From positions 1 to 25,134 of the IMG/VR virus record IMGVR_UViG_2778261505_000007: a stretch of 25,134 nucleotides of DNA, one strand, 5' to 3'. Every line of letters begins with the position of its first letter. Within the stretch, counting starts at the first letter, position 1. Origin of the DNA: a virus (Duplodnaviria > Heunggongvirae > Uroviricota > Caudoviricetes). Below, piece by piece: positions 2,498 through 15,876 of the stretch. A program made the position numbers and the translations under genes. Below the pieces are notes generated by a model, which saw only the letters and a program-made list of their open reading frames with translations, ran no database searches and was not told the DNA's origin.

Positions 2498-2746
2498 TCA
2501 TGCAGCGTTGCTCACAGGACGATATACACGTTGCTGAACAGGAGGTTTTTTACCCTGGAACTCTGCCGGGCTTGCTGCCTGACGTTCATCAAGCCAACGC
2601 TCAACTTCATCACGGTTCCATGCGCAGCGTTTATCGGTGATATACCAGCGTTTAGGAAATTCCCCTGCGCGCTCCATACGGTCGATAGTGCTCCATGACA
2701 GTGGCACCACCGCCAGGAGTTCCTTCTTACCTAATGCACCTTTCAT
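2498..2746 (-). CDS. AlpA/Xis-like helix-turn-helix DNA-binding protein (putative excisionase or regulator)
   Basis: 82-aa protein with an AlpA/Vis-type HTH signature (LLAVVPLSWSTIDRMERAGEFPKRWYITDKRCAWNRDEVERWL), of the kind found alongside P4-type integrases. Confidence 0.6.
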   Translation of the reverse strand: MKGALGKKELLAVVPLSWSTIDRMERAGEFPKRWYITDKRCAWNRDEVERWLDERQAASPAEFQGKKPPVQQRVYRPVSNAA

Positions 2747-4965: not shown

Positions 4966-4980
4966 TTACCGTTGAGGTAA
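4966..4980. promoter_or_regulatory. Operator-like palindrome OL1 (TTACC-GTTGA-GGTAA)
   Basis: Perfect 5+5 inverted repeat with 5-bp spacer, abutting the putative -10 of the leftward promoter. Confidence 0.6.
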
Positions 4981-5008
4981 TGATTATGCGTATTTGGTTT
5001 GATGTCAA
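4980..5008 (-). promoter_or_regulatory. Putative leftward early promoter (P_L-like)
   Basis: On the minus strand: -35 TTGACA (plus 5003-5008), 17-bp spacer, -10 AATCAT (plus 4980-4985). Flanked by OL1 and OL2. Confidence 0.45.
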
Positions 5009-5027
5009 TAGATATGAGTTAAAAAAA

Positions 5028-5042
5028 TTACCTATTAGGTAA
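5028..5042. promoter_or_regulatory. Operator-like palindrome OL2 (TTACC-TATTA-GGTAA)
   Basis: Perfect inverted repeat 62 bp centre-to-centre from OL1, 20 bp upstream of the -35. Confidence 0.6.
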
Positions 5043-5099: not shown

Positions 5100-5684
5100 T
5101 TATTGTTTGTTTTTTTCGTTCTGGTTGATGACAAATTCAATGTAACTTTCGATCTTTGCCTTCTCTGTTTCAGGTAACAATGCGTAGCGCGAGCGGTCAT
5201 AGTTGATAGTCGCTGGGTCGTGCGGGTGAATCAGTAATTCATATCCGTGACGCCCAAATGCGGATGCAACATTCTCCAGGGTGGAAATGGAAACGCTGAC
5301 CTCATTGTTTAACAGGCGGCTGATTGTTACCTGGGCGACGCCGGATGCGCGGTGAAGTTTTCCCTGCGTTGAAAGGTCGCGGCTTTCGCTCATCCAGCGT
5401 TCCAGGTTGTGAGCCGCCAGCTGGCCAATGTCGCTTGGGCCGACAGGCTGAAAACCTTCCTGAGAAAGCGAGCGATCGATATCAAGCCAGTTACGGGGTT
5501 TATTGGCGGCAGCTTCAATTTTTCGTGCAACCTGGTCGCCGATAACCTTCTTGCCAAGAGCCCAGCGGTTTACCAGATTTGCCTGAGTTCCAAGTTTTTC
5601 AGCCATCCGCGTCTGAACACCATTGAATTCACGGTCGATCAAGTCGTTGAGATTTTGCCTGCGGACGTCCTGGATACTTTTCAT
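5100..5684 (-). CDS. CI-like prophage repressor, two XRE-type HTH regions, no S24 peptidase domain evident
   Basis: 194-aa ORF flanked by operator clusters and divergent from a cro-like gene. HTH-like segments TRMAEKLGTQANLVNRWALGKKVIG and GVAQVTISRLLNNEVSVSISTLENVASAFG. No GDSM-like serine or Ala-Gly cleavage motif found. Confidence 0.7.
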   Translation of the reverse strand: MKSIQDVRRQNLNDLIDREFNGVQTRMAEKLGTQANLVNRWALGKKVIGDQVARKIEAAANKPRNWLDIDRSLSQEGFQPVGPSDIGQLAAHNLERWMSESRDLSTQGKLHRASGVAQVTISRLLNNEVSVSISTLENVASAFGRHGYELLIHPHDPATINYDRSRYALLPETEKAKIESYIEFVINQNEKNKQ

Positions 5685-5739: not shown

Positions 5740-5754
5740 TTACCCAACAGGTAA
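5740..5754. promoter_or_regulatory. Operator-like palindrome OR-a (TTACC-CAACA-GGTAA)
   Basis: Perfect inverted repeat in the cI-cro intergenic region. Confidence 0.6.
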
Positions 5755-5784
5755 ATGCACCTCATGGGTAACTATCCTTGATTT

Positions 5785-5813
5785 TTGTTACCTTATAGGT
5801 GAATATTTATTAT
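5785..5813 (+). promoter_or_regulatory. Putative rightward promoter for cro (P_R-like)
   Basis: -35 TTGTTA (5785-5790), 17-bp spacer, -10 TATTAT (5808-5813), about 25 bp upstream of the cro ATG. Confidence 0.45.
5788..5802. promoter_or_regulatory. Operator-like palindrome OR-b (TTACC-TTATA-GGTGA, one mismatch)
   Basis: Lies between the putative -35 and -10 of the rightward cro promoter. Confidence 0.5.
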
Positions 5814-5838: not shown

Positions 5839-6069
5839 ATGAGCGATAACGGACATTTCGATTTCAAAAAGCACTGGCTTGCACTTACTCCGGATGAGCG
5901 TGAAGCCTTCGCACAGGAAGCCGGAACGACGAGTCACTATATCCAGACTCACTTAACAGGTAAGCGCAAAATGCCAGGTAAGGTATTGATGGATGGGCTT
6001 TTTAAAGCCTGTAAATCAAGACAATGGCTGCGCTCAAAAGCAGAACTGGCATACTTCTTCTACTCATGA
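5839..6069 (+). CDS. Cro-like small HTH regulator (YdaS/Cro-like)
   Basis: 76-aa ORF divergent from the repressor, followed by a strong terminator. HTH-like segment LTPDEREAFAQEAGTTSHYIQTHLTGKRK. Confidence 0.6.
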   Translation: MSDNGHFDFKKHWLALTPDEREAFAQEAGTTSHYIQTHLTGKRKMPGKVLMDGLFKACKSRQWLRSKAELAYFFYS

Positions 6070-6090: not shown

Positions 6091-6114
6091 AGACCGCCAC
6101 CCGGCGGTCTTTTC
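6091..6114 (+). terminator. Rho-independent terminator after cro (tR1-like)
   Basis: Hairpin AGACCGCC-ACCC-GGCGGTCT followed by TTTT. Confidence 0.6.
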
Positions 6115-6124
6115 ATATCTATTC

Positions 6125-6139
6125 GTACCTCAAAGGTAA
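6125..6139. promoter_or_regulatory. Operator-like palindrome (GTACC-TCAAA-GGTAA, one mismatch)
   Basis: Sits just past the cro terminator and upstream of the small Cys/His ORF. Confidence 0.45.
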
Positions 6140-6219
6140 TAAAAAACCAAATCTGGTTGATCTTTTTTTTGTGTCAGCACAAAATGACCGTAATCCCAAT
6201 ACTAATAACAGGGCTTACC

Positions 6220-7251: not shown

Positions 7252-8033
7252 ACAACGTTTTTACCGCGATACAAAACCGTGACGGAGAAGCCCTTTCTCG
7301 CATGTCAGGTTATGAGCATCAGTACACCAACAATGACAACGTGGTGAACATGTCAGCAGAGAGGCTTGTTGATGCCCTTTTCAAACAGCTGAAACAACTG
7401 TTTCCGGCGGCAGTGGTAACCAACCTGAAGACGCCAGAGCAGGAAGTTGCTGCAAAACAGCAGTGGATTGCTGCGTTTGCCGAAGGGGGGATCCGAACCC
7501 GTGAACAGGTTTCTGCTGGTATGCGCCACGCCCGCGCCAGTGAGTCTCCGTTCTGGCCGTCGCCAGGGCAATTCATCAAGTGGTGTAAAGACAGCAAGAT
7601 GGTTCTTGGCGTCACCATTGACGATGTGATGGCGGAGTTTCACCGGTACAGCAAGGAAAAAAGTTTATATCCTGGTGGTCCAGAAAGATTCCCGTGGCGA
7701 CATCCGGTTATGTACTGGGTCGTATGTGATACCCGCCGTGCAATGTATCAGCGCCAGCTTAGCGAGATTGAGGTTGAGAAACACGCGCGCAGGCTGCTCG
7801 ATGATTGGGCGAAAAAGGTGGCTTCCGGACAGCAGATACCCGATCCGGTGATCAGCATACAGGCAAAGCCAGAACCCATGAGTACACCTCCGGACACAGG
7901 GAGAGACGTTTACCATCCACCAGGGCGAAGTTTCGGGTGCATGCCTAACGCCGCCACCCTTGGGGGAATAACACCGGCGCAGTGGCTGATGGAGGAATAC
8001 AGGCGGGGAAAGGCGGCAGGATTTATCAAGTAA
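7233..8033 (+). CDS. Replication protein P-like (DnaB helicase loader)
   Basis: Clear similarity to lambda P in blocks (AGMRHARASESPFWPSPGQFIKWC; YPGGPERFPWRHPVMYWVV). Start may be GTG 7248 overlapping the O stop, with GGGAGG Shine-Dalgarno at 7234-7239. Confidence 0.85.
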   Translation: MGGFLVNNVFTAIQNRDGEALSRMSGYEHQYTNNDNVVNMSAERLVDALFKQLKQLFPAAVVTNLKTPEQEVAAKQQWIAAFAEGGIRTREQVSAGMRHARASESPFWPSPGQFIKWCKDSKMVLGVTIDDVMAEFHRYSKEKSLYPGGPERFPWRHPVMYWVVCDTRRAMYQRQLSEIEVEKHARRLLDDWAKKVASGQQIPDPVISIQAKPEPMSTPPDTGRDVYHPPGRSFGCMPNAATLGGITPAQWLMEEYRRGKAAGFIK

Positions 8034-8038
8034 TACCA

Positions 8039-8058
8039 GCGCGATAGCGCATTTTTTT
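8039..8058 (+). terminator. Weak putative terminator after the P-like gene
   Basis: Short GCGC-GATA-GCGC stem followed by ATTTTTTTA. The stem is only 4 bp. Confidence 0.3.
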
Positions 8059-8070
8059 ACGCTCAAATAA

Positions 8071-8085
8071 TTACCTATCAGGTAA
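8071..8085. promoter_or_regulatory. Operator-like palindrome (TTACC-TATCA-GGTAA)
   Basis: Perfect site 20 bp upstream of a -35-like TTGATT. Confidence 0.55.
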
Positions 8086-8104
8086 TAAAATATTCTAAAC
8101 TCTA

Positions 8105-8133
8105 TTGATTTCGTGTCTTATGTGGTTTTTAAT
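8105..8133 (+). promoter_or_regulatory. Putative promoter for the 8151-12117 operon
   Basis: -35 TTGATT (8105-8110), 17-bp spacer, -10 TTTAAT (8128-8133). Same geometry relative to the two palindromes as at P_L. Confidence 0.45.
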
Positions 8134-8147
8134 TACCTCAGAGGTAA
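8133..8147. promoter_or_regulatory. Operator-like palindrome (TTACC-TCAGA-GGTAA)
   Basis: Perfect site abutting the -10 and overlapping the Shine-Dalgarno of the 8151 gene; 62 bp centre-to-centre from the 8071 site. Confidence 0.55.
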
Positions 8148-8150
8148 ATC

Positions 8151-8498
8151 ATGAGAAAACAGATGCAGGCTCTTGGTCGACTCAAAACAGGCCAGATGAA
8201 CAAAACAGAATCTGCGTATTGCCAGCACCTTGAGCTGCGTAAACGTGCAGGGGAAATCGCCTGGTATCGATTCGAGGGTATCAAGCTGCGGTTAGCTAAT
8301 AACACGTTCTATACGCCCGATTTCGCTGTGATGCTCGCCACCGGCGAGATGGAGCTGCACGAAGTGAAAGGGGGATTCTGGACCGATGACGCCAGAGTGA
8401 AAACCAAAGTCGCCGCAGATCAGTATCCGTTCCGAATCATCGGGGTAACGGTTAAGCCAAAGAAAGCAGGTGGTGGCTGGAACATCGAAGAGTTCTGA
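8151..8498 (+). CDS. DUF1064-like phage protein
   Basis: 115-aa protein with a pattern typical of the DUF1064 family common in lambdoid replication/nin regions (YTPDF...HEVKGG). Family call is from memory, not a search. Confidence 0.55.
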   Translation: MRKQMQALGRLKTGQMNKTESAYCQHLELRKRAGEIAWYRFEGIKLRLANNTFYTPDFAVMLATGEMELHEVKGGFWTDDARVKTKVAADQYPFRIIGVTVKPKKAGGGWNIEEF

Positions 8499-8559
8499 AT
8501 CGACGATCTTTTTAGTTATCAATGTAATCAATAAGTTATGTGGATAAGCGAGGGTAAAG

Positions 8560-9165
8560 ATGGAAAGTAATATCAAAGAGTTAGTTGCCGCCGGGCATGA
8601 GATGGCTTCGGAACTGAAAGCAGAATGTGGTGCCGTTGATATGCGTAGTGTGGCAAAGCTGCTCAGCGATTTGGCAACGCAACTGGAAGTGCAACTGGCG
8701 CGTGCTAATGCGCTGGCGGCGGAGAATGCTCGCTACTCAATGTCAGCAGGGCAAGCAGACCAAAGAATGTCGGAGTCGTGCGCAGTTCGGGAGGCACTTG
8801 GGTTTAATCGGTCAGCTGACGACGTGTCACCATCTGACCTGGTAGATAAAATCAAATCTATCATAGCTGAATGTGATGCTATCCGTAGCGCACACCCTCA
8901 ACCACTTGGCCCTGTAATGGATGCTGCAATCGATGCATTTAATGCAGAGGAGATGCCTGAAACCGGAATGCTTAACGCGTACTTCATCCTGCGTGACAGC
9001 ATCACGGTGCAAACTCCGTCCACTGACGCCTTCCTGGCTGAAGTGCGGGCGCGGGGTGTGGAGATGTTTGCTGCCAGCCTGAAGGTTGTTGGTGGTCAAG
9101 AGCATCCATATTCATCGTTGGCTCACGAGTTCGCAACCCAGCTTCGCAAAGGAGGCAACCAGTGA
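8560..9165 (+). CDS. Hypothetical protein
   Basis: 201-aa ORF with good Shine-Dalgarno (GAGGGTAAAG ATG). No recognisable motif. Confidence 0.5.
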   Translation: MESNIKELVAAGHEMASELKAECGAVDMRSVAKLLSDLATQLEVQLARANALAAENARYSMSAGQADQRMSESCAVREALGFNRSADDVSPSDLVDKIKSIIAECDAIRSAHPQPLGPVMDAAIDAFNAEEMPETGMLNAYFILRDSITVQTPSTDAFLAEVRARGVEMFAASLKVVGGQEHPYSSLAHEFATQLRKGGNQ

Positions 9166-9806
9166 GTAACCGTTTTTACATGATGTGCTTGCGTGAAACT
9201 GTGGGTAATAACGCCTCATTCCATTGCCATAACGGCAATGGTTACAGTTCTGATATCGATCGCGCTCATGTTTACACGCTGGAAGAAGCCCAAAAAGCCT
9301 GGAATTGTGGGCGAGATATCGATCAGCCTGTTTGTGCCGATAGTGTGGATGCAATGGCTGTGTGGCACGTTGATTGCCAGTACATCCCTACAGAAAGCCT
9401 GATTGAGTCAGATTGCACTGCGTATGTGGCCTACAAAAAAGGTAGCTGGAACGGCAACGATGTTTACTGGCTTCAACACGGTGGATTGCCAACAGATGAC
9501 TTCAGTAAAGCGACCATCTTTAGCGTCGCCAACAAAAACGAACCAGGAATAGTTTGGTTGCCATTTTCCATTGCTGATGCAGCAAAGCGCCGGACGTTCA
9601 ATATCAATAACTTTAACCGCAGAACAATGGTTCAGGGCGCAGGTTTGGTCATGCCTGACTGGTTGAAAGAGCAGAACAGAAGAAAGAAGTCGCGAAGCGG
9701 GAAGGTGCGTTGGAATTGTCCGCATTGCGGAAAAATAACCTGGCAGTACAGCCCATATGATTTTGAAGGCTGTAGTGATTACAACTGTGAAGGATGGCGA
9801 GAATGA
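9162..9806 (+). CDS. Hypothetical Cys-rich protein with C-terminal zinc-ribbon-like motif
   Basis: 214-aa ORF with GTG start overlapping the previous stop and AAAGGAGG Shine-Dalgarno. C-terminus WNCPHCGKITWQYSPYDFEGCSDYNCEGW. Confidence 0.5.
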   Translation: MSNRFYMMCLRETVGNNASFHCHNGNGYSSDIDRAHVYTLEEAQKAWNCGRDIDQPVCADSVDAMAVWHVDCQYIPTESLIESDCTAYVAYKKGSWNGNDVYWLQHGGLPTDDFSKATIFSVANKNEPGIVWLPFSIADAAKRRTFNINNFNRRTMVQGAGLVMPDWLKEQNRRKKSRSGKVRWNCPHCGKITWQYSPYDFEGCSDYNCEGWRE

Positions 9807-10444
9807 CAATTGACTATCAGGTACTGCGTGAGGCGGCAGAAAAGGCAACGTGTGGTGAGTGGTCGCTCGAATATGGAAAGGGCCGATTTGATGGTGATGA
9901 TGCGCTAATTCATCGTGAAGTTGCTGGATATATTCCCATTTGCAGAATTGAAGGAGCGCATCCTGAAAGCGGTTTCGATGAAGATTTCCAAACTGAACAG
10001 CAGGCCAATGCTGAATTCATCGCCGCAGCCAGTCCAGCTACCGTGCTGGCGCTGCTGGACGAGCTGGAGCATTACAAATCACGCGAAGAGCGGGTTACAA
10101 AGCTGGTTATGGATAACTCGACAAGTTGGAATGCTCTCTACAAGAAACTGAAAGACGTAGAGAAGCGCATTGCAGAACTGGAAGCACGGGAAATAAAACC
10201 AGCCAAAGGTGAAGTTCTTGTCGTTGTTTCTGGTTTTACTGGTTGCGGAAAAAGCGCCATTGCCGGGGAAATAGAAATTGCGATGAAAGCTATTGGTGTA
10301 CCGGTACAGTGGACTAATGGCGATGCGGAAAAGCGCATGACAGGAGCTGACTGGCTGACAGCGATTGAGATGTACAAACCAACAGTGCGCATCGTGGAAG
10401 TTAATGTGCCACGCGCCGCTGGCATTCGCATCAAAGGAGAGTGA
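9794..10444 (+). CDS. Ead/Ea22-like protein
   Basis: Contains the segment ANAEFIAAASPATVLALLDELE characteristic of the lambdoid Ead/Ea22-like family, followed by a coiled-coil stretch. Confidence 0.6.
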   Translation: MARMTIDYQVLREAAEKATCGEWSLEYGKGRFDGDDALIHREVAGYIPICRIEGAHPESGFDEDFQTEQQANAEFIAAASPATVLALLDELEHYKSREERVTKLVMDNSTSWNALYKKLKDVEKRIAELEAREIKPAKGEVLVVVSGFTGCGKSAIAGEIEIAMKAIGVPVQWTNGDAEKRMTGADWLTAIEMYKPTVRIVEVNVPRAAGIRIKGE

Positions 10445-10445
10445 T

Positions 10446-10667
10446 ATGGCTAACTCATTACTTAAAACATGCAACAACTGGCAGATTCAGAGGGCGGAGA
10501 TTTTATCTCGCAATCCAGATATGGCAATGACAATTGATAACCTGGATACGCTAATTGAACGGACCGTGCGTTCTGCAATTGATATAGCACATCGAGTGGA
10601 TTGGGATTTCAGAGAAGCGGAGCGACTCGCTAAAGAGCAGGCGAAAGCAGCGGGAAAAGGAGAGTGA
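10446..10667 (+). CDS. Hypothetical protein (73 aa)
   Basis: ATG at 10446 with AGGAGAG Shine-Dalgarno; the ORF-track version starting at 10365 overlaps the previous gene. Confidence 0.45.
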   Translation: MANSLLKTCNNWQIQRAEILSRNPDMAMTIDNLDTLIERTVRSAIDIAHRVDWDFREAERLAKEQAKAAGKGE

Positions 10668-10668
10668 T

Positions 10669-11436
10669 ATGACCACTTTCACCGACAAAGAACTGATTAA
10701 AGAAATCAAAGAGCGTATCAGCAGCCTGGACGTTCGAGACAATATTGAACGCCGGGCTTATGAAATTGCACTGGCATCGCTGGAAGCAGATCCAGTTGCT
10801 TATATTTTCAAACATCCTGCCGGGAAATTATTCTGGGCTTTAACGGATGAAAGCAATAAAGAGCAACCGGACGTTATTCCTGTTTATGCTGACTCACCTG
10901 CGCCGGTTGTGCCGGATGAAATAGACGTAAACGATGTACCAAGGGCGGTGACATATTTCAAGACACACAGAGATTGTTACGCAGATGGCTGGAACGCCTG
11001 CCACGCTGCCATGCTTCAGGGTAGCCAACCTGTAAGCCAAACTTACAACTTGCCAGAATTAATCGAAGGCATGGAAGTTTCCATTGATGTAAGCACTTGT
11101 GATGCTGATTTAGGTAATCGCTATTTCGGCACCGTCACCGAGGCGTTAGAACTTGATACAGCCAAGAATGGTTACATCCTCCTGGTTCAGGACGCAGAGC
11201 CAAACTTCGATGTAAATGGCAACTCTCCGGTAACTCCGGATGGTTGGATAAGCTGTAGTGAGCGAATGCCGAACGAAGAAGATGTTTTGGTTTATTGCTC
11301 AGACACAAAAGAGCAGATGGTAGGGTTTCACAAAGGTAAAGGGTTATTTCAATTCTTTTACATGAATGGTGTTGAGGGGGTATGTGAGCCGTCACACTGG
11401 ATGCCGCTACCAGAGCCGCCGCAGGAGGTGAAGTGA
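10669..11436 (+). CDS. DUF551-like phage protein
   Basis: C-terminal region with the HWMPLPEPP signature of the DUF551 family. Confidence 0.6.
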   Translation: MTTFTDKELIKEIKERISSLDVRDNIERRAYEIALASLEADPVAYIFKHPAGKLFWALTDESNKEQPDVIPVYADSPAPVVPDEIDVNDVPRAVTYFKTHRDCYADGWNACHAAMLQGSQPVSQTYNLPELIEGMEVSIDVSTCDADLGNRYFGTVTEALELDTAKNGYILLVQDAEPNFDVNGNSPVTPDGWISCSERMPNEEDVLVYCSDTKEQMVGFHKGKGLFQFFYMNGVEGVCEPSHWMPLPEPPQEVK

Positions 11437-11786
11437 TGGACTATTCACAGTTAAGTGATTTTGAAATTAACAGAATGGTAGGAGACATAATTTTTAAAGG
11501 CCTTTGGGCGTGTAAACCGGAAACATCAGGGAATAACACCAACAAATGGTATTACGGAAATACTGATACAACTTTTGAGCCATTAAACCCTTTACCTGAC
11601 TACTGCAATAATCCATCGGATGCATGGCCTATTATTGTTGATAATAAAATCAGTCTAACCTGCCACCAATCTCGCGGTGAGTGGTCAGCTGTTTTTAATG
11701 CCGAGAACATTTGCTTTCATGCGAATAATCCACTCCGAGCCGCCATGATTGTATTTCTCATGATGCAGGAAAATCAGAATGGCTAA
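11436..11786 (+). CDS. NinX-like (DUF2591-like) protein
   Basis: N-terminus MDYSQLSDFEINRMV resembles the NinX family of lambdoid phages. AGGAGGTG Shine-Dalgarno; ATG overlaps the previous stop (TGATG). Confidence 0.55.
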   Translation: MDYSQLSDFEINRMVGDIIFKGLWACKPETSGNNTNKWYYGNTDTTFEPLNPLPDYCNNPSDAWPIIVDNKISLTCHQSRGEWSAVFNAENICFHANNPLRAAMIVFLMMQENQNG

Positions 11787-12117
11787 ATCAGCATCAGAGC
11801 GCAAAGCCGCTCAGAGAGCCAGACAAGCTGCATCTGGTGTGCGTAAGCTGGAGATTGTGCTTGATGCTCAGGAAATTGAAATGCTGGAGCGTAACTGTGC
11901 CACGCGTCGCCCCGGGCGTGCGCCTTACGAATTTGGGGAGTATATAGCGTTACTGATCCGCCAGGATGATGCACGCGTGCGCGGGCGTATAAAATCGATT
12001 AGCAGAAAACGTTGCGGTAAGTGCGGCGAGAAAGTTCCCGTTAATTCATGCCCGTGTAATGGTGACTCGCAATGCTGGGTGACTAAAGGCTGGCATGAAA
12101 CTAAATTAATAGTGTGA
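11779..12117 (+). CDS. Hypothetical basic protein with putative DNA-binding N-terminus and C-terminal Cys cluster
   Basis: 112-aa ORF; N-terminal basic/helical segment (SERKAAQRARQAASGVRKLEIVLDAQEIEMLER) and C-terminal CGKCGEK...CPCNGDSQC motif. Last gene before the terminator and the terminase genes. Confidence 0.45.
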   Translation: MAKSASERKAAQRARQAASGVRKLEIVLDAQEIEMLERNCATRRPGRAPYEFGEYIALLIRQDDARVRGRIKSISRKRCGKCGEKVPVNSCPCNGDSQCWVTKGWHETKLIV

Positions 12118-12166
12118 CATGTCACGAGTAGATTATGCATGATGAATTTGATGGGTTTTGAATACT

Positions 12167-12193
12167 GCCGCCAACTATGGCGGCTTTATTTTG
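12167..12193 (+). terminator. Rho-independent terminator upstream of the terminase genes
   Basis: Hairpin GCCGCC-AACTAT-GGCGGC followed by TTTATTTTG. Confidence 0.55.
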
Positions 12194-12203
12194 CATGGTA
12201 CTA

Positions 12204-12218
12204 TTACCACAACGGTAA
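12204..12218. promoter_or_regulatory. Operator-like palindrome (TTACC-ACAAC-GGTAA)
   Basis: Perfect site 18 bp upstream of the terminase small subunit ATG. Confidence 0.55.
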
Positions 12219-12221
12219 CAA

Positions 12222-12236
12222 TTACCAGGGTGGTTA
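12222..12236. promoter_or_regulatory. Operator-like palindrome (TTACC-AGGGT-GGTTA, one mismatch)
   Basis: Immediately adjacent second site, overlapping the terminase small subunit Shine-Dalgarno and start. Confidence 0.4.
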
Positions 12237-12832
12237 TGATGCCTGCTGAACCTAAAACCTATAAACGCAAATCAACGCAATTTAAGCCACTAACCGCAAT
12301 GCAGGAGGCTTATTGCCAGTCATACATCAAAACGCCTGAAAACCAGACTCAGGCAGCGATTAACGCAGGATTCTCCCCAAATACAGCGGCAGTTAAAGCC
12401 AGTGTCATGATGCGCGATGAACGCATTCAAAAACGGATTGCCGAGTTGATGGAGGAGCGCAACAAACGAATGCGCGTCAGTGCCGATTACGTTCTCATGC
12501 GCCTGGTGGAGATCGACCAGATGGACGTGATTGATATCCTCAACGACGATGGGAGCCTTAAGCCAATCCGCGAGTGGCCGAAAATCTGGCGCACTACGCT
12601 TAGTGGCTTTGATCTGTCATCGACCATCATGAACATGAACGAGGATTCGATAGAGACAATCCTCAAAAAAATTAAATGGCCTGACAAGGTGAAGAACCTC
12701 GAACTGATTGGTAAGCACGTCGACGTCAACGCATTCAAAGAACGCCTGGATGTTAATGTGAATGTGACAATTGCTGATCGCATAGCGGCAGCCAGGAAGC
12801 GACTCAAAGAACGTCAGGATGGTAATCAGTGA
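12236..12832 (+). CDS. Terminase small subunit
   Basis: Translation has the pattern typical of phage small terminases (LTAMQEAYCQSYIKTPENQTQAAINAGFSPNTAAVKASVMMRDERIQKRIAEL). True start is taken as ATG 12236/12239 because the ORF-track N-terminal extension runs through a terminator. Confidence 0.8.
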   Translation: MMPAEPKTYKRKSTQFKPLTAMQEAYCQSYIKTPENQTQAAINAGFSPNTAAVKASVMMRDERIQKRIAELMEERNKRMRVSADYVLMRLVEIDQMDVIDILNDDGSLKPIREWPKIWRTTLSGFDLSSTIMNMNEDSIETILKKIKWPDKVKNLELIGKHVDVNAFKERLDVNVNVTIADRIAAARKRLKERQDGNQ

Positions 12833-14298
12833 CAGATACAGCGTTATCTCCTGAAGAGCAGTTGATCGAGGATATTGCAGGGTTCACTCACGATCCGCTT
12901 GGCTATGCCCTCTATGCGTTCCCGTGGGGGGAAGAGGGGACTGAACTGGCACATGCTACCGGCCCACGTCAGTGGCAGGCTGATGCGTTCCGAGAGATAC
13001 GTGATCACCTGCAGAATCCAGAGACGCGCTATCAGCCGCTTATGCTGGCACGCGCTTCGGGTCACGGTATTGGTAAATCCGCATTCATCTCAATGCTGAT
13101 CAACTGGGGCATGTCCACTTGCGAGGATTGTAAGGTCGTGGTGACCGCCAACACCGACAACCAGCTACGAACGAAGACCTGGCCGGAAATTATCAAGTGG
13201 TCGAACCTTGCTATCACGAAAGACTGGTTTACCTGTACCGCTACCGCGATGTACAGCAATGACCCTGGGCACGACAAGCGGTGGCGAGCTGACGCAATCC
13301 CCTGGTCTGAGCACAACACTGAGGCATTCGCCGGACTACACAACGAGCGCAAACGCATCATCGTGGTATTCGACGAAGCATCCAACATTGCCGATCTGGT
13401 GTGGGAGGTAGCAGAGGGTGCGCTGACGGACGAAGACACTGAGATTATCTGGGTGGCATTCGGAAACCCTACACGTAACACCGGGCGTTTCCGCGAATGT
13501 TTCCGCAAATATAAACACCGCTGGAAAACTGCGCAGATTGACAGCCGGACGGTGGAAGGCACTAACAAACAGCAGTTGCAGAAATGGGTTGATGACTACG
13601 GGGAAGACAGCGACTTCGTTAAAATCCGTGTGCGCGGCATATTCCCTGATGCATCTGAATTGCAGTTTATCCCTACCGGTCTTACTGATGAGGCAATGAA
13701 ACGGGTGGTAACCGCTGCGCAGGTGGCGCATGCTCCGGTGATAATCGGTGTTGACCCGGCATATTCAGGCGTTGATGACGCGGTGATATACCTGCGGCAG
13801 GGGCTACACAGTAAGGTGCTGTGGACTGGCAACAAGACTACCGACGATCTGATTATGGCGAAGCGTATCGCTGACTTTGAAGACCAGTATCAGGCTGACG
13901 CGGTGTTCATCGACTTCGGTTACGGAACCGGTCTGAAGTCAATCGGTGACGGATGGGGTCGTACATGGCAACTTGTTCCGTTCGGTGGCGCGTCTACTGA
14001 CCCGCAGATGCTCAACAAGCGTGGGGAGATGTTCAATTCATGCAAGACATGGCTGAGGCTGGGCGGCATGCTGGATGACCAGGAAACAGCAGACGACCTG
14101 TCGGCGGCAGAGTACAAAGTTCGAGTGGACGGTAAAATCGTTATCGAACCGAAGGAAGATATCAAGGAGCGGCTTGGGCGTTCGCCGGGTAAAGGCGATG
14201 CGCTACTGCTGACGTTTGCGTTCCCGGTAGCCAAGAAAACTAATGACCCACGGCAGCAGCAGGGCAGGGCTATAACAGACTATGACCCATTTGAATGA
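12829..14298 (+). CDS. Terminase large subunit
   Basis: 489-aa protein with Walker A-like ATPase motif (ARASGHGIGKS), an acidic Walker B-like region (IIVVFDEAS) and a C-terminal nuclease-like region. GTG start overlaps the small subunit stop. Confidence 0.9.
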   Translation: MTDTALSPEEQLIEDIAGFTHDPLGYALYAFPWGEEGTELAHATGPRQWQADAFREIRDHLQNPETRYQPLMLARASGHGIGKSAFISMLINWGMSTCEDCKVVVTANTDNQLRTKTWPEIIKWSNLAITKDWFTCTATAMYSNDPGHDKRWRADAIPWSEHNTEAFAGLHNERKRIIVVFDEASNIADLVWEVAEGALTDEDTEIIWVAFGNPTRNTGRFRECFRKYKHRWKTAQIDSRTVEGTNKQQLQKWVDDYGEDSDFVKIRVRGIFPDASELQFIPTGLTDEAMKRVVTAAQVAHAPVIIGVDPAYSGVDDAVIYLRQGLHSKVLWTGNKTTDDLIMAKRIADFEDQYQADAVFIDFGYGTGLKSIGDGWGRTWQLVPFGGASTDPQMLNKRGEMFNSCKTWLRLGGMLDDQETADDLSAAEYKVRVDGKIVIEPKEDIKERLGRSPGKGDALLLTFAFPVAKKTNDPRQQQGRAITDYDPFE

Positions 14299-14301
14299 TT
14301 T

Positions 14302-15150
14302 TTACTTTTGTGTTTTTGATTTTCTTTGATGGGTGGAATTTAAACCACCATTTATATTTACTAGAGGATTATTCAATAATGTACTGATTTCTGGATTGTT
14401 AATTCCAGTAACGCCAAGTTTCTTTACGGACTCATTAAGGTCTTGTAATGATTTTAGACCTACAAACCCATTAGCAATTGTATTATTTGTTGCCAAAGGA
14501 ATGTTTTTCTTATAGGACTCATATTCGTTTTTTAAATTTTTGTGGGCTTTTTCTAGATTTTCTAGTTTAGATGTTGTTTCATGAATAACCTTAGATAATT
14601 CTAAAATACGAGCTTGTGCTGCGCGCAGTTCTGTCTCCCTCTCTTTCAATTCAGATGTGAGTTGTCCCATTCTGTCTTTTGAAAGAATTATTTCCTCTTT
14701 CATGTCTTGAATGTTTTTTTCAGCGCCTGTTTTTACTTTTTCGTAAGTAATGTCTTTTTTAGCCAGCAATCTCTGTAGCCGTGTTTCACGTTGTATTTTT
14801 CTTGCCTTCCGGTGATTTTCGATTGAGTCATTATTATCAAGAGGCTTTGCTTGCCATACGTTAATGATATTGTTTACCCATGGTAATAGGCAGCAGATAG
14901 TAATTACAGATAAGCATGGATAAAACATAACAGTTTTCCATGTGCTGTTATCTGAGATGTATGAAATTTTATCTATTATATTTGATTTGCTAAAAAATAG
15001 ATAAAGAAGTGATTTCCAGTTGAAGGCGCACCAGGACATAACAAAAGCACCTAGCACAGGGTTTTTAGCTCGATGCACGGCAGTATTGGCAGTAGATAAA
15101 AACAGCTCTTTGAACGATTCGAACATACTAATTACCTTAAAGTTTTTCAT
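14302..15150 (-). CDS. AT-rich gene: membrane-anchored coiled-coil protein of unknown function (about 282 aa)
   Basis: Opposite strand to all flanking late genes and visibly AT-rich. Two hydrophobic segments (PVLGAFVMSWCAFNWKSLLYLFF; TVMFYPCLSVITICCLLPWVNNIINVW) followed by a long charged heptad-like region. Preferred start ATG 15150 (AAGGT Shine-Dalgarno); the longer track ORF to 15222 would translate through a terminator hairpin. Confidence 0.6.
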   Translation of the reverse strand: MKNFKVISMFESFKELFLSTANTAVHRAKNPVLGAFVMSWCAFNWKSLLYLFFSKSNIIDKISYISDNSTWKTVMFYPCLSVITICCLLPWVNNIINVWQAKPLDNNDSIENHRKARKIQRETRLQRLLAKKDITYEKVKTGAEKNIQDMKEEIILSKDRMGQLTSELKERETELRAAQARILELSKVIHETTSKLENLEKAHKNLKNEYESYKKNIPLATNNTIANGFVGLKSLQDLNESVKKLGVTGINNPEISTLLNNPLVNINGGLNSTHQRKSKTQK

Positions 15151-15154
15151 GATT

Positions 15155-15169
15155 ATACCTTTAAGGTAA
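15155..15169. promoter_or_regulatory. Operator-like palindrome (ATACC-TTTAA-GGTAA, one mismatch)
   Basis: Overlaps the Shine-Dalgarno/promoter region of the AT-rich gene. A TTACC half-site also at 15132-15136. Confidence 0.4.
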
Positions 15170-15184
15170 TTTGTGGTCATCAGG

Positions 15185-15209
15185 CAAAAAAATGCCCGGC
15201 GAACCGGGC
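15185..15209 (-). terminator. Rho-independent terminator downstream of the tRNA
   Basis: On the minus strand, hairpin GCCCGG-TTCG-CCGGGC followed by ATTTTTTT. Confidence 0.55.
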
Positions 15210-15372: not shown

Positions 15373-15449
15373 TGGCGCGGCATGCAGGATTCGAACCTGC
15401 GACCAACCGCTTAGAAGGCGGTTGCTCTGTCCAACTGAGCTAATGCCAC
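15373..15449 (-). tRNA. tRNA-Arg (anticodon UCU)
   Basis: Minus-strand 77-nt sequence GTGGCATTAGCTCAGTTGGACAGAGCAACCGCCTTCTAAGCGGTTGGTCGCAGGTTCGAATCCTGCATGCCGCGCCA folds by hand into a cloverleaf: 7-bp acceptor stem, GTTCGAATCC T-arm, anticodon loop CTTCTAA, encoded CCA. Related to but distinct from the host argU sequence as I recall it. Confidence 0.9.
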
Positions 15450-15771: not shown

Positions 15772-15786
15772 TTACCTGAAAGGTAA
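15772..15786. promoter_or_regulatory. Operator-like palindrome (TTACC-TGAAA-GGTAA)
   Basis: Perfect site about 90 bp upstream of the first virion gene. Confidence 0.55.
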
Positions 15787-15876
15787 TAATTAGTGCGTTA
15801 AATGTCAAGTATCTACGATAAATAAATCACATGTGGTTAAATTGGTAATAATTTAATTGCGTACGGAGTCATTGAT

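Follow-up and report, generated by a model that had tools for sequence, protein, structure and literature searches.

A predicted promoter and repressor operators at the head of the terminase operon in a phiV10-type Uetakevirus prophage

How does a temperate phage keep its packaging genes silent, and later express them, when no Q-like antiterminator is encoded ahead of them? The question is raised by a viral sequence of 25,134 nucleotides (IMG/VR record IMGVR_UViG_2778261505_000007; hereafter the window, meaning the whole stretch that was analysed), in which a terminator and two adjacent palindromes separate the last gene of the early-right operon from the genes for the small and large terminase subunits, terS and terL. 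An initial annotation of this DNA placed the terminator at 12167-12193 and the palindromes at 12204-12218 (perfect) and 12222-12236 (one mismatch), and we find all three there. We consider it probable that the terminator insulates the terS-terL control region, that transcription begins at an extended -10 promoter belonging to this operon, and that the prophage repressor, Rep, represses that promoter directly through two operators, O1 and O2. The elements of this reading are the following.

12167-12193, plus strand: intrinsic terminator, GCCGCCA-ACTA-TGGCGGC followed by TTTATTTTG (terminator scan, RNA fold)
12196-12204, plus strand: predicted extended -10 promoter of terS-terL, TGGTACTAT, of the form TGnTAnnAT (conservation in 84 loci)
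12204-12218, palindromic: operator O1, TTACCACAACGGTAA, a perfect TTACC-N5-GGTAA, at about -7 to +8 of the predicted promoter
12222-12236, palindromic: operator O2, TTACCAGGGTGGTTA, with one mismatch (GGTTA), at about +12 to +26, over the Shine-Dalgarno sequence GGTGG (12229-12233)
12236-14298, plus strand: packaging operon of terS (Terminase_2, Pfam E 1e-29) and terL, in synteny with phiV10 and epsilon15
5100-5684, minus strand: prophage repressor Rep, predicted binder of O1 and O2 (homolog of SPC32H Rep, PDB 5D50, E 4e-42)

Between positions 8000 and 14500 the window is 96-98% identical to the Escherichia phages TL-2011b, phiV10, ZX5 and their relatives, and its terminase genes share about 82% identity with those of Salmonella phage epsilon15. 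Judged by this identity, the window is a Uetakevirus (epsilon15/phiV10-like podovirus) prophage, running from the integrase gene through the internal virion protein genes; within Uetakevirus it is of the E. coli phiV10 type. Of 5426 complete E. coli genomes, 495 (about 9%) contain the 1-kb junction.

The junction before terS

The terminator combines a G+C-rich hairpin (seven pairs, six of them G-C, in the terminator scan) with a U tract, folds as RNA at -16.9 kcal/mol (z = -2.9 relative to shuffles), and is predicted from its sequence to function in the plus direction only. It is kept in most relatives and is missing where a UmuD-like moron abuts the promoter. The initial annotation took it to head the late operon; this most likely needs revision, as the DNA that separates the terminator from O1 holds a conserved, predicted extended -10 promoter. 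Because of that promoter we do not regard the terminator as an attenuator that needs an antiterminator; most likely it ends the early-right operon, insulates the terminase operon and is not part of the terminase transcript. An Rfam scan reported tRNA alone, a sub-threshold match to rseX at the terminator being due to chance.

The promoter emerges from an alignment of 84 related loci, comprising 29 distinct variants, on O1. The invariant columns read TG.TA.tAT and, directly following, TACC...A.GGTAA: TG, TA and AT never change, and position -13 (the n of TGn), the third position of the hexamer and the operator spacer vary. TG is the exact left edge of the conserved block, also in loci that share no upstream DNA and have a UmuD-like moron in place of the terminator. 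This is the layout of an extended -10 promoter, with TG at -15/-14 and a TAnnnT hexamer, for which a -35 element is dispensable. The last T of the promoter is the first base of O1, and transcription is predicted to start at about 12211. Two promoters with a good -35, PL and the one at 8105-8133, are built alike: the last T of the -10 hexamer also opens the proximal Rep site, and each promoter has another Rep site 62 bp farther upstream.

Across relatives the arms of O1 are invariant and its spacer is variable. The mismatched arm of O2 differs by type, being GGTTA in the E. coli type and TTACT (TTACT..GGTAA) in the epsilon15 type; in SPC32H the site has two mismatches, and in the Klebsiella phage ST512-KPC3phi13.3 it has been lost. 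O2 looks like an auxiliary weak site, which would be filled cooperatively by the second DNA-binding pair of a Rep tetramer.

The initial annotation also had the palindromes overlap the Shine-Dalgarno sequence and start codon of the terminase. O2 does cover GGTGG and the first ATG of the ATGATG that begins at 12236, an ATG produced by the mismatch in the O2 arm, but the second ATG, at 12239, is the probable start of terS, favoured by the alignment with epsilon15 and by the spacing from the Shine-Dalgarno sequence. In the RefSeq record of phiV10 (our locus L002), terS is annotated at 41-715, equivalent to 12158-12832 of the window, with a TTG start equivalent to 12158, 5' of the terminator, and a length of 224 residues. 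This start is probably wrong: a reading frame opened there would cross the two operators as well as the terminator. An ATG start at 12239 (or 12236) agrees better with how epsilon15 and SPC32H are annotated and with the pattern of conservation.

A mini-open reading frame (ORF) of eight codons upstream of the terminator (12135-12161, plus strand; MHDEFDGF and a stop) is, by comparison of intergenic variants, an in-frame deletion remnant of a 70-residue moron gene. In related prophages the slot between the last gene of the early-right operon and the terminator is filled by one of three morons: the 70-residue ORF, a gene with a LexA box, or a UmuD-like gene under LexA control. The promoter scan reported GTGACA-18-CATGAT (12114-12143) here, which would give the lambda-like order of a promoter, a leader and then the terminator. 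This layout was considered and rejected: the stretch is a moron deletion remnant, its -10 is not conserved, and morons replace it in relatives. As a separate observation, near-consensus LexA boxes (TACTGT-N8-ACAGTA) drive small morons at this place in relatives (at about 40-60 of the intergenic stretch in L068, and downstream of the last early-right gene in L060, L080, L081, L085 and L086); one such moron is a UmuD-like S24 peptidase, and a LexA box also lies 5' of the ant gene in epsilon15 and SPC32H.

Probable operators of the prophage repressor

The two palindromes before terS belong to a larger set, and to that extent the initial picture was incomplete: nine further copies of TTACC-N5-GGTAA lie in the window. 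With at most one mismatch there are 11 copies against 0.39 expected, a number reached in none of 100 shuffles. They start at 4966, 5028, 5740, 5788, 6125, 8071, 8133, 12204, 12222, 15155 and 15772, and all fall in the non-coding 8.7% of the window. Among perfect 5-N(3-7)-5 palindromes the motif ranks first in the window, epsilon15, SPC32H, a Klebsiella phage and an Enterobacter phage; in this unbiased count, which disregards frame-shifted readings of the same sites, it reaches 7-11 copies, and any unrelated combination of arm and gap reaches at most four.

The window, phiV10, epsilon15 and SPC32H all have copies at PL and in the divergent rep/cro region, three at each place in epsilon15 and SPC32H and two at each in the window. 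Paired sites recur at spacings of 62 bp and 17/18 bp, the former in all four genomes, and in relatives Rep sites also precede the tailspike and lysis (holin) operons. The RefSeq record of epsilon15 (NC_004775; Kropinski et al. 2007) annotates a site at 12-27 and six others as 'protein_bind', repressor, lysogeny; the site at 12-27 is the equivalent of O1, immediately 5' of terS and 3' of the terminator. With epsilon15 and SPC32H the window shares the genus Uetakevirus, a 15-17-bp palindrome ATTACC-N5-GGTAAT, its location between a terminator and terS, and a homologous repressor. It differs from the epsilon15 annotation in its second, weaker site, O2; the epsilon15 record marks O1 alone and omits the OR copies. 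The phiV10 record, unlike that of epsilon15, has no repressor-site annotation.

The homologous Rep of SPC32H is represented in the PDB (5D50/5D4Z; Kim et al. 2016), and SPC32H is itself a Uetakevirus carrying the same palindromic sites. Rep of the window is 52% identical to it in the N-terminal DNA-binding part, as against 36% in the rest, and the helix NLVNRW is identical; because the N-terminal part is better conserved, repressors just 42% identical overall share one half-site. According to a later paper that reviews the SPC32H work (PMC9638917), Rep acts as a tetramer on palindromic sites, with DNA-binding pairs contributed by different dimers, and one tetramer is enough for repression. When the repressor is overexpressed in ZX5, which is 97% identical to the window, holin and endolysin transcripts fall by 99.97-99.99% (PMC9782041).

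The sequence marks of Uetakevirus Rep operators are present: a matching palindrome, a cognate repressor of the SPC32H Rep/epsilon15 gp38 family encoded in the same element, copies at rep/cro and PL, and conserved arms around a free spacer. We strongly infer that Rep binds at 12204-12236. The TTACC-N5-GGTAA sites are most probably general operators of the prophage repressor and not a dedicated late-gene signal. The initial annotation was right to see protein-binding operators here; the site-specific late regulator that it proposed for them gives way to the prophage repressor, whose sites are also found at OR, at PL and ahead of each remaining transcription unit.

The proposed mechanism is as follows. 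The terminator would close the early-right operon and shield the genes downstream, and sigma-70 RNA polymerase would initiate at the extended -10 promoter. Rep on O1 would cover the -10/+1 region, and Rep on the weaker O2 the 5' leader and the ribosome-binding site. In the lysogen a single Rep tetramer, with its two pairs of DNA-binding domains, could fill both operators at once, blocking RNA polymerase; once Rep is disabled, in this phage group by the antirepressor Ant, the terS promoter would fire. A terminator, a promoter and one or more Rep sites on that promoter would make up a module that occurs again at PL, in 8039-8147 and in 15152-15209 of the minus strand. Repression would be spread over every transcription unit, and a Q-type antiterminator would not be needed to silence the late genes. 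The other Rep sites of the window and their surroundings are these.

4966-5042, minus strand: PL region, with Rep sites 4966-4980 and 5028-5042, 62 bp apart, flanking TTGACA (5008-5003) -17- AATCAT (4985-4980); the -10 and the proximal Rep site share one T, the last base of the former and the first of the latter
5740-5813, plus strand: OR region between rep and a cro-like gene (5839-6069), with Rep sites 5740-5754 and 5788-5802
5785-5813, plus strand: PR, TTGTTA-17-TATTAT (promoter scan)
6125-6139, palindromic: Rep site with one mismatch, just 3' of a terminator (6091-6110) and 5' of a gp40-like gene; no promoter was identified in 6091-6139
8071-8147, plus strand: middle-operon control region, in which a terminator (8039-8058) is followed by Rep sites 8071-8085 and 8133-8147, 62 bp apart
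8105-8133, plus strand: middle-operon promoter, TTGATT (8105-8110) -17- TTTAAT (8128-8133), between the Rep sites at 8071 and 8133
15152-15209, minus strand: terminator (15209-15194), promoter ATGACC-17-TATAAT (15180-15152) and Rep site 15155-15169, which lies in the spacer and -10
15772-15786, palindromic: perfect Rep site 5' of the gp3/portal operon; its epsilon15 equivalent, 2931-2947, is annotated as repressor binding

The minus-strand unit contains a gene of about 274-282 codons (14302-15150) that replaces the small Sf6-gene-66-like gene found after terL in phiV10; it has a terminator, a promoter and a Rep site of its own and no Pfam match. Between the terminase and portal operons there is also a tRNA-Arg gene (anticodon TCT; 15373-15449, minus strand), as in SPC32H and the Klebsiella relative. 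A further element, the box CCATATRTGGTT, part of the palindrome AACCATATATGGTT, occurs at 6147-6158, 8116-8127 and 15827-15838, and also 5' of the tailspike and holin operons in L001, L002 and L083. It lies downstream of Rep sites and just upstream of -10-like hexamers with a poor -35, and is conserved between relatives. The box is not enriched in the window (36 occurrences with at most three mismatches, 31.8 expected) and is not seen before terS.

A ribbon-helix-helix zinc-finger protein and an associated palindrome

The initial annotation recognized no Q-like antiterminator, and searches of the ORFs in 8151-12117 with three libraries of hidden Markov models (Pfam, PHROGs and NCBIfam) likewise returned no Q-family match. 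The ORFs are assigned to DUF1064, PHROG 492, PHROG 2457, Ead/Ea22, PHROG 10585, DUF551, NinX and PHROG 536, a 'transcriptional regulator'. The last of these, a 112-residue protein, is the best candidate for a Q homolog and was rejected as such: it has a ribbon-helix-helix (RHH) fold. The suggestion that the lysis genes lie beyond the window end agrees with the relatives, in which the lysis cassette is 3' of the tailspike gene, past the right end. PerC-family and AlpA-family regulators in the early-left operon (2089-2388 and 2498-2746, minus strand) are further candidates for late control. Two features are of interest at the end of the early-right operon.

11779-12117, plus strand: last gene of the operon, encoding the 112-residue RHH protein with a C-terminal Cys4 zinc finger (hereafter RHH-Zn; PHROG 536, the family of epsilon15 gp49, phiV10 p55 and N15 gp46)
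12114-12125, palindromic: perfect 12-bp palindrome GTGACATGTCAC, of the form YGTGAC-NN-GTCACR, overlapping the TGA stop codon of the RHH-Zn gene

An alignment-based structure model of the protein has the strand-helix-helix order of an RHH fold (a single-sequence AF2 model was unusable, with pLDDT 42). The C-terminal half, a long helix and a C4 cluster, gives a borderline match to TraR, a protein of the RNA-polymerase secondary channel, and to YbiI (hmmsearch E 0.02, with an hhalign probability of 47%). The top fold matches of the model do not include TraR, and none of 63 family members matches PF01258. Homology to MatP, the RHH protein of E. coli that binds matS (GTGAC-RNY-GTCAC), was considered and set aside, there being no significant sequence similarity. 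The phage palindrome also differs from matS in a centre of two nucleotides and not three, gap-3 copies not being enriched, and the phage protein differs from MatP in having a zinc finger and no MatP-type coiled coil.

The palindrome is kept in 82 of 83 Uetakevirus-type loci, in 78 of them as GTGACATGTCAC; its arms are fixed and its centre varies (AT, GG, CT, AG). Further perfect YGTGAC-NN-GTCACR copies occur at operon ends beside terminators in epsilon15, phiV10, SPC32H and BUCT554; followed along the terminated transcript, they precede intrinsic terminators by 1-40 nt. Such copies follow terL and close the structural operon, and SPC32H has a mismatched one where its lysis operon ends. The copy after terL that most relatives possess is missing from the window at 14302-15150. 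Morons in Uetakeviruses are inserted directly after the palindrome copy at the RHH-Zn gene, in the slot that corresponds to 12135-12161 here. PADLOC defence models gave no match.

The palindrome also accompanies distant homologs of the gene (32-46% identity), lying over the stop codon, as at N15 gene 46, 3-15 nt past it, or 15 nt before the start. Copies outside the window stand at 2142, 19517 and 39612 in L001, at 2145, 19634, 38629 and 26696 in L083, at 5429 and 7954 in L232, at 5881 in L234 and at 5270 in L266. Of 52 loci with distant RHH-Zn homologs 47 carry it, with 54 copies in 471 kb against 0.45 expected; the two-nucleotide centre alone is enriched, and centres of 0, 1 or 3-7 nt yield just 0-3 copies. 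A scan of viral contigs with the 14-mer TGTGACATGTCACG was uninformative, random matches being expected. In an HK97-like context the order is gene, palindrome, holin, HNH, palindrome, terS; in a P2-like one the palindrome is in cos-proximal DNA beside portal and terminase genes, between convergent terminators; and in a lambda-like one it lies 1.4 kb before the terminase genes. No terminator was found within 90 nt of any of the 54 copies in the distant phages. By its association with the gene family, YGTGAC-NN-GTCACR is very probably the binding site of the RHH-Zn protein, for which we put it forward as a candidate. Because the palindrome adjoins packaging and late genes, a role in their control is suggested, and RHH-Zn with its palindrome is a candidate for an additional late regulator acting at a site other than TTACC-N5-GGTAA.

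Alternative readings and known systems

Several points weigh against direct repression of a terS promoter by Rep. The promoter at 12196-12204 has no usable -35 at 17-18 bp, which is why a consensus promoter scan misses it and reports nothing between the terminator and terS; it is read from a conservation pattern, and its last two bases also belong to the 17-bp operator consensus. O2 is degenerate in every relative and lost in one Klebsiella phage. Every relative found uses the TTACC half-site, including Klebsiella and Enterobacter phages and repressors down to 42% identity, so that covariation of operator and repressor offers no test. Finally, a promoter controlled by Rep only would give no delay between early and late expression, and a further regulator may exist. 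The empty scan and the lack of a -35 would also fit an operon that has no promoter and is reached by read-through of the terminator, with Rep at O1 and O2 acting as a stoperator-like roadblock to leaky read-through in the lysogen. The Rep site at 6125 likewise lies directly 3' of a terminator, and the stoperators of mycobacteriophage L5 are a precedent for a repressor roadblock. We think this unlikely: TGnTAnnAT is invariant and conservation starts from TG, in loci lacking the terminator as well, the same -10/operator geometry recurs at two promoters with a good -35, and the sites are palindromic with no orientation bias. It is very improbable that a dedicated late activator, in place of the repressor, recognizes TTACC-N5-GGTAA. 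Late operons do have these sites ahead of them (those of terS and portal in the window, of tailspike and holin in relatives), but the early and middle units have them too, as do OR and PL, and at three promoters the sites cover the -10/+1 or the spacer, which are positions for a repressor; the cro-like protein, not a late activator, may share them. The least likely proposal is that the pair before terS is the pac or terminase-recognition site. Pac sites often lie within or beside terS, and the database records of phiV10 and epsilon15 are linearized at terS, but a packaging site is expected to be unique, and on the copy number, 11 in 25 kb with copies in the immunity region and at PL, this reading was dropped.

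A different proposal gives the late switch to RHH-Zn, which would act at the palindrome at 12114-12125, for instance on terminator read-through, as a non-homologous analog of Q, the Rep sites serving as a lysogenic safety lock. The gene stands in the place of Q, closing the early genes just ahead of the late ones, and in an HK97-like phage the palindromes on both sides of holin and HNH precede terS. The tie of the palindrome to the gene family, with its specific centre, the Uetakevirus copies just upstream of intrinsic terminators and the weak likeness of the C-terminal half to the RNA-polymerase-binding zinc finger of TraR/DksA also speak for it. Against it stand the 0 of 54 distant copies with a nearby terminator, the P2-like prophage copies in cos-proximal DNA between convergent terminators, the 0 of 63 matches to Pfam zf-dskA_traR (PF01258), one Uetakevirus copy that lies 5' of the terminator of a minus-strand moron, and a distance from palindrome to terS promoter that varies among relatives (about 74, 92 and 277 nt). 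The family moreover co-exists in N15 with a Q-type regulator, gp40 ('late transcription activator'). P2 late genes are activated by Ogr, and the family is also present in P2-like prophages, presumably together with Ogr-type activators (no search for an Ogr gene was made). On balance we find this proposal unlikely. A broader version, in which the RHH-Zn/palindrome pair, common to temperate phages of podo-, sipho- and myovirus type, is the late switch of Q-less phages and in Uetakeviruses controls terminator read-through into the terminase operon as a DNA-tethered contact for RNA polymerase, is speculative and in our judgement equally improbable.

Direct repression through O1 and O2 has parallels. 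In P1, N15/phiKO2 and L5, one repressor with many scattered operators silences several units directly. The window resembles these systems of scattered-operator immunity (C1 of P1, CB of N15/phiKO2, with CB operators annotated in the N15 record, and the gp71 stoperators of L5) in having a single repressor, many genome-wide sites and direct silencing that would include late units. Their repressors and site sequences are unrelated to those of the window, and the L5 stoperators are asymmetric and orientation-dependent, whereas the window sites are palindromic and lie over promoters. With the lambda Q/PR'/tR' region the junction shares the presence of a terminator and its place in the genome, where the late genes follow the last nin-type gene; it differs in having no Q homolog, in the predicted order of terminator before promoter, and in not being followed by lysis genes.

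That a repressor site precedes terS is already known from the epsilon15 record. New here are the promoter geometry, the recurring module of terminator, promoter and operator, and the RHH-Zn/palindrome pair; the promoter geometry and the pairing of sites at 62 and 18 bp were read in the present analysis and are absent from the phage records. phiV10 is in use as a reporter and typing phage, and for phage engineering the analysis identifies the 45 bp to keep or remove when cargo is placed beside terS. The RHH-Zn/palindrome pair offers an experimental handle on a protein that is now labelled 'hypothetical'. For the phage itself, the packaging genes would be wired directly to the immunity repressor through a small promoter of their own, and because they would be under its direct control, a temperate phage could do without Q.

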